Shown here in pieces: positions 40,355 to 46,474 of a stretch of DNA of 64,000 nucleotides (within the stretch, counting starts at the first letter, position 1; each line of letters opens with the position of its first letter). The stretch lies in the IMG/VR virus record IMGVR_UViG_3300027672_001796; one strand, given 5' to 3'. The notes under the pieces were generated by a model. That model ran no database searches. It was not told the origin of the DNA and saw nothing but the letters and a program-made list of their open reading frames with translations. Made by a program: the position numbers and the translations under genes. This stretch comes from a virus (taxonomy: Duplodnaviria; Caudoviricetes).

Positions 40355-41497
40355 ATGCTGTTAATTCAATTCAACACCTCGATAGATATTTCAATTTTCC
40401 CTGTTGAGATAATTCAAACATTTAAACATGACACATATCTTATTGATTTGAACTTGACCGATTATAGTACAATTAACTATATAACAAGCAACTATGACAT
40501 ACTAAGTATGCAAAGCAATGCTGATATGCCGTATATCGACGTATACGAAGCTCATACAACGTCATACACCAACGTTACAACCGAAGACACACTTGCGCCA
40601 CTTATAGAAAAACTTGACCTACTGAGCATGGCAGAGCCCCATATAGTATGCTTTAGTTGGACAACAGACCGTAACTATATATTAGATTACCGTGTTAAAA
40701 AACTATTAGAAGCTGGATTTTTAGTTGTTTGTGGCGGCGGAAATGCAGACTTACCTATAACAGATGTAAGCCCAGTTGCAGTAGACGGTGTAATTAGAGT
40801 AGGTGGAAACAAATACAACGGACAATATCAAAACTGGATAGACATATATGATGTAACTGTTCCAGATGTGCCTAACACTCATGAAGCGGCACACATAGTA
40901 TGCGAACTAATGATTAATAAGAATTTAGAACTAGATTACAGTTTAGGATTTTATAGCGAAAGTACTATTCGTAGTGCGCCATGGCCTCTTAGACTCGCAC
41001 AAACGCCCAGCACAGCAATTAAATACTATGAATTTATGCCTGTATCCAATTTGCGATACTTTAGCGGAGAGCATTTATTACCAGTTAGAGAAGGCGACAC
41101 AGTAAGTGTACTGTATGGCGGAGTTCCACTAGAAGACTTTACAAGCCCAAGGAACATTCAACTAGACACTACAGTACCAAGAGGGTGTACATTTAACACA
41201 CAAAGTGGTTGGCTGTACGGCACATTTAAATTTAAAGTACCTATGTTCCATAGATTTTTAGCAGACATAAATGGGCAGTTATTCGAGTATCACATTATAA
41301 GTGCTGACGCAGATACTAAGCCAGACTTTGCAGAATGTAAACAAAAATATTTAAACCAGCCATACGATGCTCCACCATTTACTATGAGAGAGTATTGGGT
41401 GCCTATGGCAAGACCTATTAAACTATTAGAGCCAGGCGACCCATTTATTAGAACTTTTAATTTAAACGACTTACATTTATATAGGAGTTACGAATGA
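40355..41497 (+). CDS. Degenerate subtilase (S8)-like protein
   Basis: VCFSW...LLEAGFLVVCGGGN...SPVAVDGVIRVGG follows the subtilisin core; catalytic D/H/S motifs not recognisable. Confidence 0.5.
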   Translation: MLLIQFNTSIDISIFPVEIIQTFKHDTYLIDLNLTDYSTINYITSNYDILSMQSNADMPYIDVYEAHTTSYTNVTTEDTLAPLIEKLDLLSMAEPHIVCFSWTTDRNYILDYRVKKLLEAGFLVVCGGGNADLPITDVSPVAVDGVIRVGGNKYNGQYQNWIDIYDVTVPDVPNTHEAAHIVCELMINKNLELDYSLGFYSESTIRSAPWPLRLAQTPSTAIKYYEFMPVSNLRYFSGEHLLPVREGDTVSVLYGGVPLEDFTSPRNIQLDTTVPRGCTFNTQSGWLYGTFKFKVPMFHRFLADINGQLFEYHIISADADTKPDFAECKQKYLNQPYDAPPFTMREYWVPMARPIKLLEPGDPFIRTFNLNDLHLYRSYE

Positions 41498-42450
41498 GAG
41501 GTGTAACTTTTAGTGAATTCGCCGGCGGACAAAATGTAGAAATGTTTTTACATGCTCCTACACAATTACCTGGCACACCAATGCAAGAAGCTGTTAAGAC
41601 AGCAATAACCATTAGAGAAAAATATACAAAAGATTTATATGTATGGTGTGATTATAGTGTACAACATATCTATTCACAGATAGCCATGCAGGCTTTTACA
41701 ATGGCAGACATTCCATTTGTAGCCGCAATACCAGTTTTAAGTAATAACCTTAGTAAACGTGAAAACGATTGTACTATTGCATATTGCGAACAGCGAAATA
41801 TACCGTACAAACTTTTCCATATAGATGTTCCTGCATTTTTTGACAGTGAAGAGTTTGAATTACACGGAGAAACATTCCCAACAACCCAACCACAGATGAC
41901 TATAGTTGGCAAGTTCTTTTCCATGCTACCGGATTGTTGCGTAGTGTATCCCGGATTTATGATGCACATAAGTAATAGTGATTGGACAAGAACTAAGAAC
42001 AATGGCTTTATGCCTTTTGTTCCACATGTAACACAAGAACATGCGGCTGAACACCATGGGCTAGAATATACAAATTTCCAAGAGCATTATGTTGACATGT
42101 ATACTAGTTGGATGTTTACCCAAAGTTATGGCGAAGTATTAAAGTCGGCAACACAGGAATTTGTTGACAATGCACCACATAGATATTATCAATATGAGAT
42201 GCGAACAATTAAACAAGCTGGGTTTGATATTAAACCAACAACAAACAAGCTAATTGGCATTGAAAAACTCAAAAGTCACTTCGGTCATGATAAATATGAT
42301 AAAGAGCTACGTCAACGTCTAGTACCATTTAGCCCACTAACCTTGAAGTATGCCAGTTTACAATACACAGTAAAAGTAGACACAAAGCTGAAGGAGATGT
42401 TGCAAACATACCATGAGACGAATTTTGAATTCTTTAACAAACTTTTTTAA
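41494..42450 (+). CDS. Adenine-nucleotide alpha-hydrolase (PP-loop)-like protein with altered loop
   Basis: Layout LYVW...S...F...IPF...N...YCEQRNIPY...IDV..FF and terminal KLIGIE recalled for phage PP-loop proteins; SGGxDS absent. Confidence 0.4.
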   Translation: MRGVTFSEFAGGQNVEMFLHAPTQLPGTPMQEAVKTAITIREKYTKDLYVWCDYSVQHIYSQIAMQAFTMADIPFVAAIPVLSNNLSKRENDCTIAYCEQRNIPYKLFHIDVPAFFDSEEFELHGETFPTTQPQMTIVGKFFSMLPDCCVVYPGFMMHISNSDWTRTKNNGFMPFVPHVTQEHAAEHHGLEYTNFQEHYVDMYTSWMFTQSYGEVLKSATQEFVDNAPHRYYQYEMRTIKQAGFDIKPTTNKLIGIEKLKSHFGHDKYDKELRQRLVPFSPLTLKYASLQYTVKVDTKLKEMLQTYHETNFEFFNKLF

Positions 42451-43246
42451 CGATAAAGCAAAAGCAAACTTTTGGCTTTACACCTTACCGGTCCAATTAG
42501 TAGGCTGGTGCATAATTCCTATTATGGCATACAACGGCGATTGGAATTACTTATGGTTAAGTCTTATAACATATTTCTTGTTTGGATGTGTGGGAATGGC
42601 TATAGGACTACACAGATATTGGGGCCATGCATGTACTGAGATGCCTAAATGGAAAGAACGTATAATGACAACGTGTAGTGTGTTTAATGGATACGGCGCA
42701 ATCTTCCCTTGGGTTATGATACATACCTCTGGACACCATAAGAACGCAGACAAAGAAGGAGACCCACATAGTCCACTACAAGGATTTTGGCATGCCTTTT
42801 TAACATGGCATAGGGAACAAAAATATTTCGACCAGCACATTGATAGAAGAGTGCTAGTCACATACATTAGGCGCGGATTTGTAAACGACAAATACTACCA
42901 GTTCTTAAATGACAATCATTTAGCAATTAACTACGGAACAGTATTATTAGCATGGTTATTGTTTGGCTGGCAAGTTGCACTATACGGTATTGTGTTCGGT
43001 ATATGGTCAACACTAATGAATACAAGTACGGTAACAGCACTAAGTCATTACAGTTGGTTTGGGTATAAAAACTTTGAAACTAAAGACAATAGTGTAAACA
43101 ATAGAGTAGGCGCAATACTTACATGGGGCGAAATGCTACATAACAATCATCACAGATATTGGAATGCACAAAGCAACAGCCACCATTGGAGTGAAATAGA
43201 TATGAGTGGGTGGGTTATAAAATATCTACTCAAGAAGAAAGACTGA
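42413..43246 (+). CDS. Membrane fatty-acyl desaturase (delta-9/OLE1-like) 1
   Basis: His boxes HRYWGH, HTSGHH, HNNHH; DPHSP, GE..HNNHH, D. Confidence 0.9.
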   Translation: MRRILNSLTNFFNDKAKANFWLYTLPVQLVGWCIIPIMAYNGDWNYLWLSLITYFLFGCVGMAIGLHRYWGHACTEMPKWKERIMTTCSVFNGYGAIFPWVMIHTSGHHKNADKEGDPHSPLQGFWHAFLTWHREQKYFDQHIDRRVLVTYIRRGFVNDKYYQFLNDNHLAINYGTVLLAWLLFGWQVALYGIVFGIWSTLMNTSTVTALSHYSWFGYKNFETKDNSVNNRVGAILTWGEMLHNNHHRYWNAQSNSHHWSEIDMSGWVIKYLLKKKD

Positions 43247-45439: not shown

Positions 45440-45446
45440 ATAAATA
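45439..45446 (+). promoter_or_regulatory. Late promoter, 5 nt before ATG
   Basis: GATAAATA-caagt-ATG. Confidence 0.6.
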
Positions 45447-45451
45447 CAAGT

Positions 45452-46474
45452 ATGAGTAAATTACTTTGGGTCAAAGGACCTCATACCACAGATCCAGAAC
45501 GAGCAGTACAAATACAATGGAGTATGGGTAATACCTGTAACTACAGTTGTGATTACTGTCCACCTATTCTACACAATGGTACTAAGCCATGGATGTCCAC
45601 AGAACAATACATAAACGTAGTCGATAAAATCTCAGAACACTATAAAGCCGCTGGCAGATTTATGCATTGGGAGTTATTAGGTGGCGAAGTAACTACTATA
45701 CCAAATTTTGAAGACATAATAAAACGTATAGCATATCACGGATCAAGTGTTACTATATATACTAACGGTAGCAGAACTATACGTTGGTGGGAAGAAGCTA
45801 AAACATATTTGTCAGGCGTAGTTATAACATATCACCCATTAACAATGGATGAACAGCATTTATATGATGTTGTTGCTACTCTAAAAGATGCACTTGTAAT
45901 GGATATAAACATAGCAGGCATTGGCGGACAAGTAGAGCAGTTAAGTACAGTTGCAGATAATTTACGAAACATGTTTACAGATGGAGTACGCCAATCTGTC
46001 TACGATGTAAACATAACAATAAAAACTATGTACAACAAGTATTTGGGTGCAGATGCAAATCATAACCAGCAAACAACTTACTACGACTATACTCCAGACG
46101 AAATAAAAATAATGCAACGTCCAGGAGTTTTACCTAATCCAAATCATACACCATCAGGTGACCCGGACGACAGCCAAGACCATCCAAAGTTTTGGAGTAC
46201 AGAATTTATGTATGATGATGCTCCAGCAAAGTATGTACAGAGTCATCAAATTATAAATGAAGGACTAAACAAATTCAAAGGCATGAAATGTGAATTAGGA
46301 TTTGATAGTTTAAATATTGATATGAATGGCGAAGTAATTAGCAGTTGGTGTGGAGCAAAAAACTTTGGGAACATAACGCAATTAGATAATTGGGAAATTC
46401 CAAAAGAGGAAACTCGTTGTCCTTACGAGTTTTGTAATAACCTAAACGACATCAGTATAACTAAAACTAATTAA
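45452..46474 (+). CDS. Radical SAM enzyme with C-terminal SPASM/twitch-like region
   Basis: CNYSCDYC, GGEVT, TNGS, C-terminal C...NGEV..WC...CPYEFC. Confidence 0.88.
   Translation: MSKLLWVKGPHTTDPERAVQIQWSMGNTCNYSCDYCPPILHNGTKPWMSTEQYINVVDKISEHYKAAGRFMHWELLGGEVTTIPNFEDIIKRIAYHGSSVTIYTNGSRTIRWWEEAKTYLSGVVITYHPLTMDEQHLYDVVATLKDALVMDINIAGIGGQVEQLSTVADNLRNMFTDGVRQSVYDVNITIKTMYNKYLGADANHNQQTTYYDYTPDEIKIMQRPGVLPNPNHTPSGDPDDSQDHPKFWSTEFMYDDAPAKYVQSHQIINEGLNKFKGMKCELGFDSLNIDMNGEVISSWCGAKNFGNITQLDNWEIPKEETRCPYEFCNNLNDISITKTN

Follow-up and report, generated by a model that had tools for sequence, protein, structure and literature searches.

A five-gene block at positions 41494 to 45439 in the genome of an uncultured marine giant phage looks like a module that acts on acyl chains. 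It encodes a 318-amino-acid (aa) PP-loop-family protein, two membrane desaturases (Des1 and Des2), a 200-aa GNAT-fold protein, and a 285-aa hydrolase. We read the block as a lineage-specific marine version of an acyl-chain tailoring module that recurs in jumbo phages, with a probability of about 0.5; plain control of membrane fluidity is the main rival. Positions refer to the window, that is, the whole 64,000-nucleotide (nt) stretch of DNA analyzed, at its full length. The genes between 40355 and 46474 all lie on the plus strand.

The open reading frames (ORFs) and their overlapping junctions are as given in the preliminary description of this DNA. A 380-aa gene (40355..41497) overlaps the 318-aa gene (41494..42450) by 4 nt (ATGA), and the latter overlaps the Des1 gene (42413..43246) by 38 nt. 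Des1 and Des2 (43246..44013) share 1 nt (TGATG), counted from the ATG at 43246, the probable start of Des2 (giving 255 aa, as in all relatives), and not from the GTG at 43210. Des2 overlaps the 200-aa gene (43983..44585) by 31 nt, and the 200-aa and 285-aa (44582..45439) genes overlap by 4 nt (GTGA). Twelve nucleotides separate the 285-aa gene from a radical SAM gene (45452..46474). The coupling of these genes had been taken as a sign of a single pathway, a view that was not borne out: adjacent large ORFs overlap at 27 of 58 junctions in the whole window, and at this rate a run of five overlaps is expected about once. Since the run does not exceed chance and translational coupling is the norm in this genome, the overlaps do not speak for a pathway. 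The late promoter proposed for the radical SAM gene fits as a motif match: GATAAATA sits 5 nt upstream of the ATG, the ATAAATA-N5-ATG arrangement is also present at three other genes, and the promoter-like motif is strand-biased (25:4).

The desaturase pair

Des1 (277 aa) and Des2 (255 aa) are paralogs (29% identical; E = 5e-26), and both are predicted to be complete SCD1/delta-9-type membrane di-iron enzymes. In alignment to SCD1, each retains all nine metal-binding histidines, with boxes HRYWGH, HTSGHH, and HNNHH in Des1 and HRLLSH, HNRSHH, and HNNHH in Des2. Comparison with SCD1 (4YMK and 4ZYO) by HMMER identified a one-residue insertion in box 2 of both proteins (HX3HH) and the TM4 histidine in each. 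Complete boxes with a lengthened second box had been noted previously, and the HX3HH form proved to be invariant across all orthologs of both desaturases. The histidine ligands of Des1 are likewise all invariant in 7 orthologs. Des2 is the sole protein in the window above the Pfam threshold as a desaturase (PF00487; E = 3e-20), and it matches SCD1 4YMK at an E value of 9e-16; its relatives are 255 to 256 aa long. Des1 is assigned through NCBIfam (DesA_fam_desat; E = 3e-17), SCD1 (4ZYO; E = 2.6e-7), and its orthologs, which carry PF00487, and hydrophobic segments precede its box 1 and separate box 2 from box 3.

In a quick tree, the short viral desaturases (250 to 280 aa) formed a mostly viral clade apart from cellular acyl-CoA/DesC-type enzymes (SH-aLRT 100). 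Three to five divergent desaturase paralogs are carried by these jumbo phages. An unrelated phage (L008/L009/L014) has a Des2 ortholog (78% identical) without the rest of the module, beside a glycosyltransferase gene. At least Des2, therefore, does not need the other genes of the module.

Partner proteins and flanking genes

The preliminary description covered the 318-aa ORF and left it uninterpreted. Judged by sequence, its product belongs to a phage PP-loop ATPase family (QueC/NAD synthase/Asn synthase-like). Distant full-length relatives found with phmmer carry the SGGxDS motif, and among 31 aligned family members, 9 matched the Pfam model QueC and 6 matched NAD_synthase. In the 318-aa protein and all of its close orthologs, DYSVQHIYS stands in place of SGGxDS, so that these proteins lack the defining ATP loop; the gene is strongly constrained (dN/dS of 0.08 to 0.10). 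The protein is probably a noncatalytic or altered partner of the desaturases. It matched a cluster of recurrent desaturase neighbors in hhalign (probability 100; E = 1e-49), and the family adjoins short desaturases in 12 further lineages, one of which is bacterial (an ACP-Des-PPloop-rSAM locus). The PP-loop gene is single copy and at most 1.3 kb from a desaturase gene in three jumbo-phage genomes of 340 to 400 kb (G001, G003, and G004); we estimate the chance of such closeness at roughly 0.03 per genome. Genomic linkage between the PP-loop family and short phage desaturases is thus conserved in many lineages, and the 318-aa protein is the best-supported and most widely conserved desaturase partner.

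The 200-aa protein, previously called GNAT-like, is a putative acyltransferase whose predicted GNAT fold is supported by both Foldseek and structural comparison. Nearly all of the top 50 Foldseek matches listed for its AF2 model (pLDDT of 69; pTM of 0.69) are annotated as GNAT acetyl- or acyltransferases; 33 of these 50 have E values of ≤0.001, and the second-ranked match, 2qml, is uncharacterized. In structural comparison, VIA scored Z values of 7 to 8, and the AHL synthases LasI, BjaI, TofI, and RpaI scored 7.2 to 8.0, level with generic GNATs. Against PDB profiles, the protein matched GNAT 3t9y (E = 0.006). The canonical Q/RxxGxG/A CoA-binding loop was not found in the protein, in a region where the model is only moderately confident. 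The dN/dS of the gene is 0.09.

The 285-aa protein, described earlier as a serine hydrolase, is on modeling evidence a dienelactone hydrolase (DLH)/esterase-like enzyme of the alpha/beta fold with a conserved Ser-Asp-His triad. The 23 sequences compared all keep HGSGG, GFS131WG, D184, and H211, and the best Foldseek matches to its AF2 model (pLDDT of 81) are DLH, lipase, and esterase structures (E values of 1e-10 to 1e-11). Its match to Pfam DLH (E = 8e-4) is below the cut-off. The enzyme could act as a thioesterase, esterase, or lipase. We found no homologs of the 200-aa or 285-aa protein outside this phage family.

Upstream of the 318-aa gene and coupled to it, the 380-aa gene encodes a subtilase-derived protein with local similarity, around AAGN, to an S8 peptidase that is intact in related phages (E = 2e-8). 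The catalytic His and Ser regions (HGT and GTS) are missing in the alignment, and the gene has a dN/dS of 0.15. This protein probably lies outside the lipid chemistry. On the other flank, the 340-aa radical SAM protein, a member of a viral family, had been counted as part of the cluster. The gene itself is real (PF04055, 38.4 bits at a cut-off of 29.5; motif CNYSCDYC); its product may have a Cys-rich, SPASM/twitch-like C terminus and weakly matches STM4011, viperin, and SkfB. Its membership is doubtful. About 0.9 kb separates it from the 285-aa gene in some relatives (L010 to L012 and L089 to L091), and sister lineages, the next closest (L092 to L102 and L104), have it directly after a PAAR gene and lack any desaturase within 10 kb. 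The radical SAM gene is therefore most likely an adjacent, separately inherited neighbor rather than a module member.

Interpretation of the module

Synteny in relatives was the preliminary description's own test, and the whole block is kept in every relative: it is syntenic in all of the 13 or more loci of the phage family, at 46 to 90% amino acid identity. The 200-aa and 285-aa genes always accompany the desaturase pair in this family. All module genes are under purifying selection, with dN/dS values of 0.04 to 0.22 for every gene (0.04 to 0.05 for Des1). RNA-library contigs of four studies match the Des1, Des2, 200-aa, and 285-aa genes, which is weak evidence, as DNA carry-over is possible.

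In an acyl-chain tailoring module, the two desaturases would use O2 and host-supplied reductant during infection to perform two different oxidations on a fatty-acyl chain held on a thioester carrier or membrane lipid, possibly placing double bonds at different positions or acting on different carriers. Transfer of the acyl group to an acceptor would fall to the GNAT-fold protein, and its release or editing, by thioesterase or esterase action, to the 285-aa hydrolase. Because its ATP loop is lost, the 318-aa protein would serve its partners structurally or by presenting the substrate; the PP-loop proteins of relatives are probably amide ligases or adenylating enzymes. This reading is favored by the synteny of the full block with its nine histidines and low dN/dS values, by the restriction of the 200-aa and 285-aa genes to the desaturase pair, and by the PP-loop/desaturase linkage (hhalign, 12 lineages, and three jumbo genomes). 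It is also favored by the Des-ACP-Des-AcpS order (a phage ACP and a holo-ACP synthase) in the complete phage relative G004, by GNAT and radical SAM genes that recur near short viral desaturases, by the design of bacterial polyyne cassettes (tandem desaturases plus a thioesterase), and weakly by the RNA-library matches. The lone Des2 ortholog, overlap as the genome norm, the noncanonical CoA loop of the GNAT-fold protein, and the loss of SGGxDS count against it. So does the lack of carriers and redox partners nearby: none of ACP, acyl-AMP ligase, ferredoxin, and rubredoxin turned up in the window or in the surroundings of the module in the close relative G001, and the ACP of G001 lies >65 kb from the module.

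Several of these observations also bear on the main rival, in which the desaturases are plain auxiliary metabolic genes that each act independently to make host membrane glycerolipids more unsaturated, for fluidity or for adaptation to cold or stress, with unrelated genes as neighbors in a densely packed genome. We regard this as somewhat unlikely. Experimentally, cyanophage vFADs are delta-9 lipid desaturases on C16 chains (PMC5776448), and the SCD1 matches of Des1 and Des2 with full ligand sets, the solitary Des2 ortholog, the commonness of gene overlap, and the lack of an ACP or acyl-activating enzyme within the module all agree with such a role. It accounts less well for 200-aa and 285-aa genes found nowhere but beside this desaturase pair, for a PP-loop family that nonrandomly adjoins desaturases in distant lineages, and for ACP and AcpS among the desaturases of G004. 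The separate clade of the short viral enzymes in the quick tree also speaks against it, and the number of divergent paralogs per jumbo phage seems more than fluidity control needs.

The target may instead be a surface or other non-fatty-acid component, such as lipid A/LPS acyl chains, an aminolipid, a glycan-linked lipid, or a virion component, which we consider improbable. The module would then be part of an oxygenase/methyltransferase/glycosyltransferase-like island (38.7 to 59 kb) in which the radical SAM protein, PP-loop protein, and 2OG oxygenases all act on one substrate. Genes of the Asp/Arg beta-hydroxylase family, which includes LpxO and OlsC, and of the TauD family recur near short viral desaturases, as do GNAT, metallophosphoesterase, and radical SAM genes, and these neighbors suit the idea. 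The desaturase of pelagiphage Mosig lies inside such an island, adjoining tail-fiber genes, and the window holds three oxygenase paralogs, a weakly Anp1-like (glycosyltransferase-family) 303-aa gene, and a methyltransferase gene just downstream. Homologs of the radical SAM, PP-loop, and 303-aa genes co-occur without desaturases in L092 to L108. However, island makeup is highly variable, which fits loose colocation equally well, no module enzyme suggests a sugar or peptide substrate, and SCD1-type enzymes are known to act on acyl chains only. The products suggested in the preliminary description (an acetylenic or N-acyl compound, a signal, or a surface decoration) are speculative. A polyyne, alkyne, or N-acyl signal (AHL-like or an N-acyl amino acid) is very improbable as a product. 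Here, a desaturase/acetylenase pair would act on a tethered chain, with the hydrolase as thioesterase and the GNAT-fold protein forming the N-acyl product. Bacterial polyyne cassettes do combine tandem membrane desaturases, an ACP, and a thioesterase (PMC9828172), G004 has ACP and AcpS beside its desaturases, and the AHL synthases match the 200-aa model, if only as well as generic GNATs do. Against this, the window has just two desaturases, both SCD1/delta-9-type, and acyl-AMP ligase, ACP, and rubredoxin were not found in it.

Comparison with known systems

Our literature search turned up no phage counterpart in print, in agreement with the preliminary description, according to which no such system is known to have been characterized. 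Mammalian SCD1 (4YMK and 4ZYO) resembles Des1 and Des2 significantly over the whole catalytic core, including the nine histidines with that of TM4. The phage proteins differ in being shorter, without the extended N terminus, and in box 2, where an extra residue follows the first His. In Des1, a Thr also replaces the Asn (presumably N265) that lies four residues before the TM4 His in SCD1. The 318-aa protein can be compared with PP-loop ATP pyrophosphatases (QueC, NAD synthetase, and asparagine synthetase B class), whose Pfam models are matched by its SGGxDS-carrying homologs, whereas it and all close orthologs have DYSVQHIYS instead.

Cyanophage vFADs (Roitman et al. 2017, ISME J, PMC5776448) are likewise phage-encoded, marine, membrane-bound di-iron enzymes of the delta-9 family with three His boxes, and they are regarded as auxiliary metabolic genes. 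They occur singly and lie close to cyanobacterial DesC, whereas the enzymes studied here are two deep paralogs of 250 to 280 aa from a separate, mostly viral clade, with HX3HH as box 2, and they are packed with PP-loop-family, GNAT-fold, and serine hydrolase genes in a jumbo phage of about 320 to 340 kb. With the bacterial thiotemplated polyyne cassettes (cay/pgn and JamABC; Kim, Ishida and Hertweck 2022, PMC9828172), the module shares a design principle, namely, several membrane desaturases acting on one acyl chain together with a releasing alpha/beta-fold hydrolase, and related phages also add ACP and AcpS beside the desaturases. The module has two desaturases rather than three, and in place of the acyl-AMP ligase, ACP, and rubredoxin of those cassettes, it carries PP-loop-family and GNAT-fold proteins.

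Layout and conservation of the locus

The window belongs to a marine jumbo phage that has not been cultured. Its relatives were assembled as contigs of 322 to 346 kb, one of them a Tara Oceans scaffold, and DNA nearly identical to the window was found in marine metagenomes from at least a dozen studies. A DNA search with 40355-46474 against 50,697 phage records in GenBank gave no match. The gene series at 40062-46474, all on the plus strand, starts with a PAAR gene (40062-40325; 87 aa), followed by a 380-aa open reading frame (ORF) (40355-41497), a 318-aa ORF (41494-42450), the desaturase genes Des1 (42413-43246; 277 aa) and Des2 (43246-44013, with its start ATG at 43246; 255 aa), a 200-aa ORF (43983-44585), a 285-aa ORF (44582-45439), and a radical SAM gene (45452-46474; 340 aa). 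We discuss 41494-45439, from the 318-aa ORF as its first gene to the 285-aa ORF as its last, as a candidate module.

From the 380-aa ORF onwards, successive genes overlap by 4, 38, 1, 31, and 4 nt, and a 12-nt gap then precedes the radical SAM gene, in agreement with the preliminary description. Of the 58 pairs of neighbouring large ORFs in the window, 27 overlap, and chance would yield about one series of five; by itself, then, the coupling does not speak for a pathway. The proposed clustering held in a synteny survey, in which the block was whole in every member of the window's phage family (46 to 90% identity). RNA libraries of four studies yielded short contigs that match the Des1, Des2, 200-aa, and 285-aa genes at 95 to 100% identity. 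These matches fit transcription in the sea, with DNA carry-over also possible; the small number and length of the contigs do not allow transcripts, starts, or the proposed late promoter to be defined, and the parts they leave uncovered are uninformative.

The flanks hold further gene families. Two short SDR paralogues (38771-39397 and 39394-39999; 36% identical and FabG-like by PHROG) sit between the RNR small subunit gene and the PAAR gene, and the closest relatives do not have them. At two comparison loci (L050 and L051), an SDR homologue lies directly downstream of a desaturase. Downstream of the radical SAM gene (47271-49308 and 49661-52275) are three oxygenase-like paralogues (31 to 34% identical), a 303-aa gene that matches Anp1 weakly, a 299-aa gene, and a methyltransferase gene, all syntenic in relatives. 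A homologue of the 303-aa gene accompanies radical SAM and PP-loop genes at loci L105 to L108.

Desaturases, GNAT-fold protein, and hydrolase

From their sequences, Des1 and Des2 are predicted members of the SCD1/delta-9-type membrane fatty acid desaturase family (PF00487). Des2 matched PF00487 (E = 3e-20) and the SCD1 structure 4YMK (E = 9e-16). Des1 matched the SCD1 structure 4ZYO (E = 2.6e-7) and the NCBIfam DesA family (E = 3e-17); PF00487 is carried by its orthologues, the window's own Des1 having no Pfam match at E < 0.01. Box 1 reads HRYWGH in Des1 and HRLLSH in Des2, and box 3 is HNNHH in both. Box 2 (HTSGHH in Des1 and HNRSHH in Des2) has the form HX3HH, compared with HRAHH in SCD1, and the HMMER alignment places a one-residue insertion after its first histidine in both proteins. 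The canonical spacing (HX4H/HX2HH/HX2HH) is therefore departed from at box 2, with the ligand count complete: all nine His ligands, including that of TM4, are present in both enzymes and invariant among orthologues. In a Kyte-Doolittle scan of seven proteins, Des1 and Des2 alone had strongly hydrophobic segments; in each of them, 19-mers of this kind precede box 1 and lie between boxes 2 and 3.

The two desaturases are 29% identical to each other (E = 5e-26). In a quick tree, 95 short (about 250 to 280 aa), mostly viral desaturases split from the cellular acyl-CoA/DesC-like enzymes with an SH-aLRT value of 100. Of 109 sequences, 23 had the HX3HH form, and these cluster as a subset of the short viral radiation. 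Des1 and Des2 each lie on a long stem (the tree leaves their sister relationship undecided) and are therefore old paralogues rather than products of a recent duplication. Among the large phage genomes compared, G004 has five desaturase copies and G003 three, and the close relative G001 has a third one elsewhere in its genome. A Des2 orthologue with 78% identity stands alone in an unrelated phage (L008, L009, and L014 [10001-10768]), which suggests that a desaturase was recently swapped between phages. This phage has a family B DNA polymerase, and a capsule-type (Caps_synth) glycosyltransferase gene comes next after the Des2 orthologue. Tandem arrays of at least three divergent short desaturases were seen on many IMG/VR contigs (L015, L018, L022, L036, L049, L060, L066, L078-L081, and L086), where some further copies are without the motifs used for spotting His boxes.

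Homologues of the 200-aa protein (43983-44585) are confined to the window's phage family. Searches of Pfam, NCBIfam, and PHROG gave no match, a protein atlas search returned only unnamed viral clusters, and the sole sequence signal was a PDB profile match to the GNAT 3t9y (E = 0.006). With its AF2 (AlphaFold) model (pLDDT, 69; pTM, 0.69), Foldseek gave 33 matches at E ≤ 0.001; the top 50 listed matches were annotated GNATs except for rank 2 (2qml, uncharacterized), with probabilities of about 1 and TM scores of 0.33 to 0.46. VIA-align gave Z scores of about 7 to 8, up to 8.2, over 133 to 154 residues. The "GNAT-like" label of the preliminary description is thus upheld at the level of the fold, and the model supports a GNAT alpha/beta fold and a putative acyltransferase. 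The AHL synthases LasI (Z = 8.0), BjaI (7.5), TofI (7.3), and RpaI (7.2) were tied, within 1 Z unit, with generic GNATs (YhbS, TacT, AtaT, and others), so we give the protein no subfamily name. In GNATs, the motif that binds the pyrophosphate of acyl-CoA is Q/RxxGxG/A, after strand 4; this region reads TRYGRGE in the window, and some orthologues have RFDRA. Of its residues, R108 and R111 are invariant, the loop glycines vary, and the model has pLDDT values of <50 at residues 104 to 115. With hhalign, no relationship was found between the family and the Pfam-GNAT proteins recurring beside other viral desaturases, or a 181-aa ORF beside a G004 desaturase.

The 285-aa protein (44582-45439) likewise has homologues only in the window's phage family. 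Its AF2 model (pLDDT, 81; pTM, 0.84) matched dienelactone hydrolase (DLH), lipase, and esterase structures best in Foldseek (E = 3e-11 to 2e-9), and the Pfam DLH model scored 19.4 bits, under its cutoff of 21. No variation was seen among 23 sequences at GFS131WG, D184, H211, or the oxyanion motif HGSGG. Fold and motifs (a GxSxG elbow and a Ser-Asp-His triad) agree with the earlier serine hydrolase label and support a predicted alpha/beta hydrolase of the dienelactone hydrolase-like type.

The PP-loop partner, carrier proteins, and the radical SAM gene

An exhaustive phmmer search with the 318-aa protein (41494-42450) found distant full-length relatives of about 300 to 340 aa (E = 1e-10 to 1e-4), part of which match the QueC, NAD_synthase, ATP_bind_3 (PP-loop), or Asn_synthase Pfam models. 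The protein, which the preliminary description had within its coordinates and left uninterpreted, is thus homologous to PP-loop ATP pyrophosphatases (adenine nucleotide alpha hydrolases). Their pyrophosphate-binding loop, SGGxDS, is canonical in every distant relative and is replaced by DYSVQHIYS in the window's protein and all of its close orthologues. With a dN/dS of 0.08 to 0.10, the protein is probably a conserved partner that has lost ATP pyrophosphatase activity, as judged from the altered motif.

The same family emerged when we clustered the genes within 5 kb of short desaturases on other viral contigs. One recurrent unnamed neighbour, present at 13 loci (12 distinct), belongs to the 318-aa family (hhalign probability, 100; E = 1e-49), and an HMM of this cluster had matches next to desaturases in 12 further lineages, none of them in the window's own family. 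Among these is a bacterial contig with the order ACP-Des-PPloop-rSAM (rSAM, radical SAM), where a 4-nt overlap joins the desaturase gene to the PP-loop gene. The family is single copy in the complete or near-complete genomes G001, G003, and G004 (340 to 400 kb) and lies at most 1.3 kb from a desaturase in each; by a rough estimate, the chance of such closeness is about 0.03 per genome. Unrelated giant phages and a bacterium show this pairing too, in some cases together with an ACP and AcpS of the phage. Other recurrent neighbours of short viral desaturases were Asp/Arg-hydroxylase-family, TauD-family, GNAT, metallophosphoesterase, and radical SAM genes, and the isolated pelagiphage Mosig has an island of a like kind.

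In the complete 355-kb jumbo phage G004 (locus L109; G004:185405-188605), a desaturase, an ACP with a DSL motif, a second desaturase, and a holo-ACP-synthase-like gene follow one another, and the PP-loop family gene lies 1.2 kb upstream of them. This order suggests that, at least in some versions of the module, the acyl substrate is bound to a carrier. G004 has, as an observation in its own right, both its own carrier protein and the activating enzyme. The ACP of G001 lies >65 kb from the module; in the window, there was no ACP-like ORF at 40 to 47.3 kb, and tblastn with a relative's ACP gave no match. The ORFs scanned between 28.9 and 52.3 kb had no fatty acyl-AMP ligase or rubredoxin-type domains. 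Since G001, G003, and G004 have no Fer2 ferredoxin or rubredoxin genes, the reductant is presumably host derived. A cellular counterpart of the phage module is found on a bacterial metagenome contig (L006), with which the window has only the desaturase and the PP-loop family in common; BLASTP of its radical SAM protein against that of the window showed no significant similarity (E = 0.87). The L006 cluster (6519-11088) consists of a Rieske oxygenase, an ACP, a short HX3HH desaturase, a PP-loop protein, and a radical SAM protein and adjoins arylsulfotransferase and PLD-like genes.

The radical SAM gene of the window (45452-46474) is genuine, with CNYSCDYC at residues 29 to 36 (CxxxCxxC) and a PF04055 score of 38.4 bits (cutoff, 29.5). 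It belongs to a viral family whose links to STM4011, viperin, and SkfB-type enzymes are weak. The preliminary description had placed it in the desaturase cluster, a placement that comparison with sister lineages made less likely. At 12 loci (L092-L102 and L104; 51 to 53% identity), the radical SAM gene directly follows the PAAR gene, 6 to 12 nt apart, and no desaturase lies within 10 kb of the pair; its conserved partner is therefore PAAR and not the desaturases. Within the family of the window, PAAR and the radical SAM gene are separated by the genes from the 380-aa to the 285-aa ORF, and in some members another 0.9 kb comes ahead of the radical SAM gene. Members of the same broad radical SAM family do turn up repeatedly in the vicinity of distant viral desaturases. 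Membership in the module, considered from this recurrence, was given less weight in view of the PAAR-radical SAM pairs without a desaturase, and a functional link with the desaturases seems to us possible and rather doubtful. The pair itself is conserved in phages.

Of the late promoter that the gene had been assigned, the sequence layout stands: GATAAATA is found 5 nt before the ATG, an arrangement shared with three other genes, and the promoter itself is a motif match. The pattern (T/G/C)ATAAATA-N5-ATG occurs at window positions 26012, 45440, 47259, and 55175. ATAAATA is strand biased in the window (25 on the plus strand versus 4 on the minus strand), and the pattern looks like a T4-type late promoter that would give a nearly leaderless transcript.

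Lineages with the PAAR-radical SAM pair have an intact S8 subtilase gene and a canonical PP-loop gene 1 to 4 kb downstream. The 380-aa ORF of the window (40355-41497) derives from a subtilase (S8): it has kept a region resembling AAGN as well as a candidate Asp and lacks the catalytic His and Ser regions; its S8 homologues are intact in the sister lineages, and its dN/dS of 0.15 indicates purifying selection. With strong purifying selection on both, the decayed PP-loop and subtilase homologues offer clean cases of conserved phage pseudoenzymes.

Interpretation and comparison with known systems

To our knowledge, phage lipid desaturases have until now been treated as single genes tuning host membrane fluidity. 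In the window phage, two deep desaturase paralogues are locked to three further conserved proteins, and we read 41494-45439 (five genes in 4 kb) as an acyl-chain tailoring module, with a probability of about 0.5. Two O2-dependent desaturases of different specificities would act on one shared fatty-acyl substrate, transfer of the chain or its release would fall to the GNAT-fold transferase and the serine (thio)esterase, and the PP-loop-derived pseudoenzyme would serve as a partner. What speaks for a functional unit is joint inheritance: the block is whole in every family member, the 200- and 285-aa genes occur in no other setting, and the PP-loop family tracks desaturases across lineages.

As the main alternative, the desaturases may be ordinary membrane fluidity genes with unrelated neighbours, as in the case of cyanophage vFADs (PMC5776448). 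The lone Des2 orthologue in an unrelated phage argues against strict interdependence of the module genes, the consistent company of the PP-loop family argues for a unit, and we hold the fluidity explanation possible at well under even odds. A broader reading, of one island serving one surface substrate, is unlikely. A polyyne or N-acyl-signal version of the tailoring module is very improbable.

The tailoring module may have a wider setting, which we put forward tentatively. Giant phages of several environments might share a common, undescribed module (short HX3HH/HX2HH desaturases, a PP-loop protein resembling amide ligases, GNAT-fold transferases, and at times ACP and AcpS) for a dedicated unsaturated, possibly amide-linked, lipid-like product in infection; in the marine lineage, the ATP-dependent partner would have turned into a pseudoenzyme and the GNAT-hydrolase pair would have been recruited. 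If true, this would be a natural experiment in pathway rewiring. Should the module make a defined lipid-like product, phages would be building or remodelling lipids in a way as yet undescribed, and the consequences might extend to the physiology of infection, to replication associated with membranes, and to marine lipid pools.

The nearest cellular design is the thiotemplated polyyne cassette, which comprises an acyl-AMP ligase along with an ACP, three desaturases, a thioesterase, and a rubredoxin (PMC9828172). The window's module has two desaturases rather than three, and the ligase, ACP, and rubredoxin of the cassette (cay/pgn, JamABC) were not found with it, so the likeness is one of analogy and not of membership. 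Our literature searches found no published description of phage modules joining a desaturase with ACP, GNAT, PP-loop, or radical SAM genes. The window contributes a marine lineage in which both desaturases have the HX3HH form, the PP-loop partner has decayed, and a GNAT-hydrolase pair is specific to the lineage.
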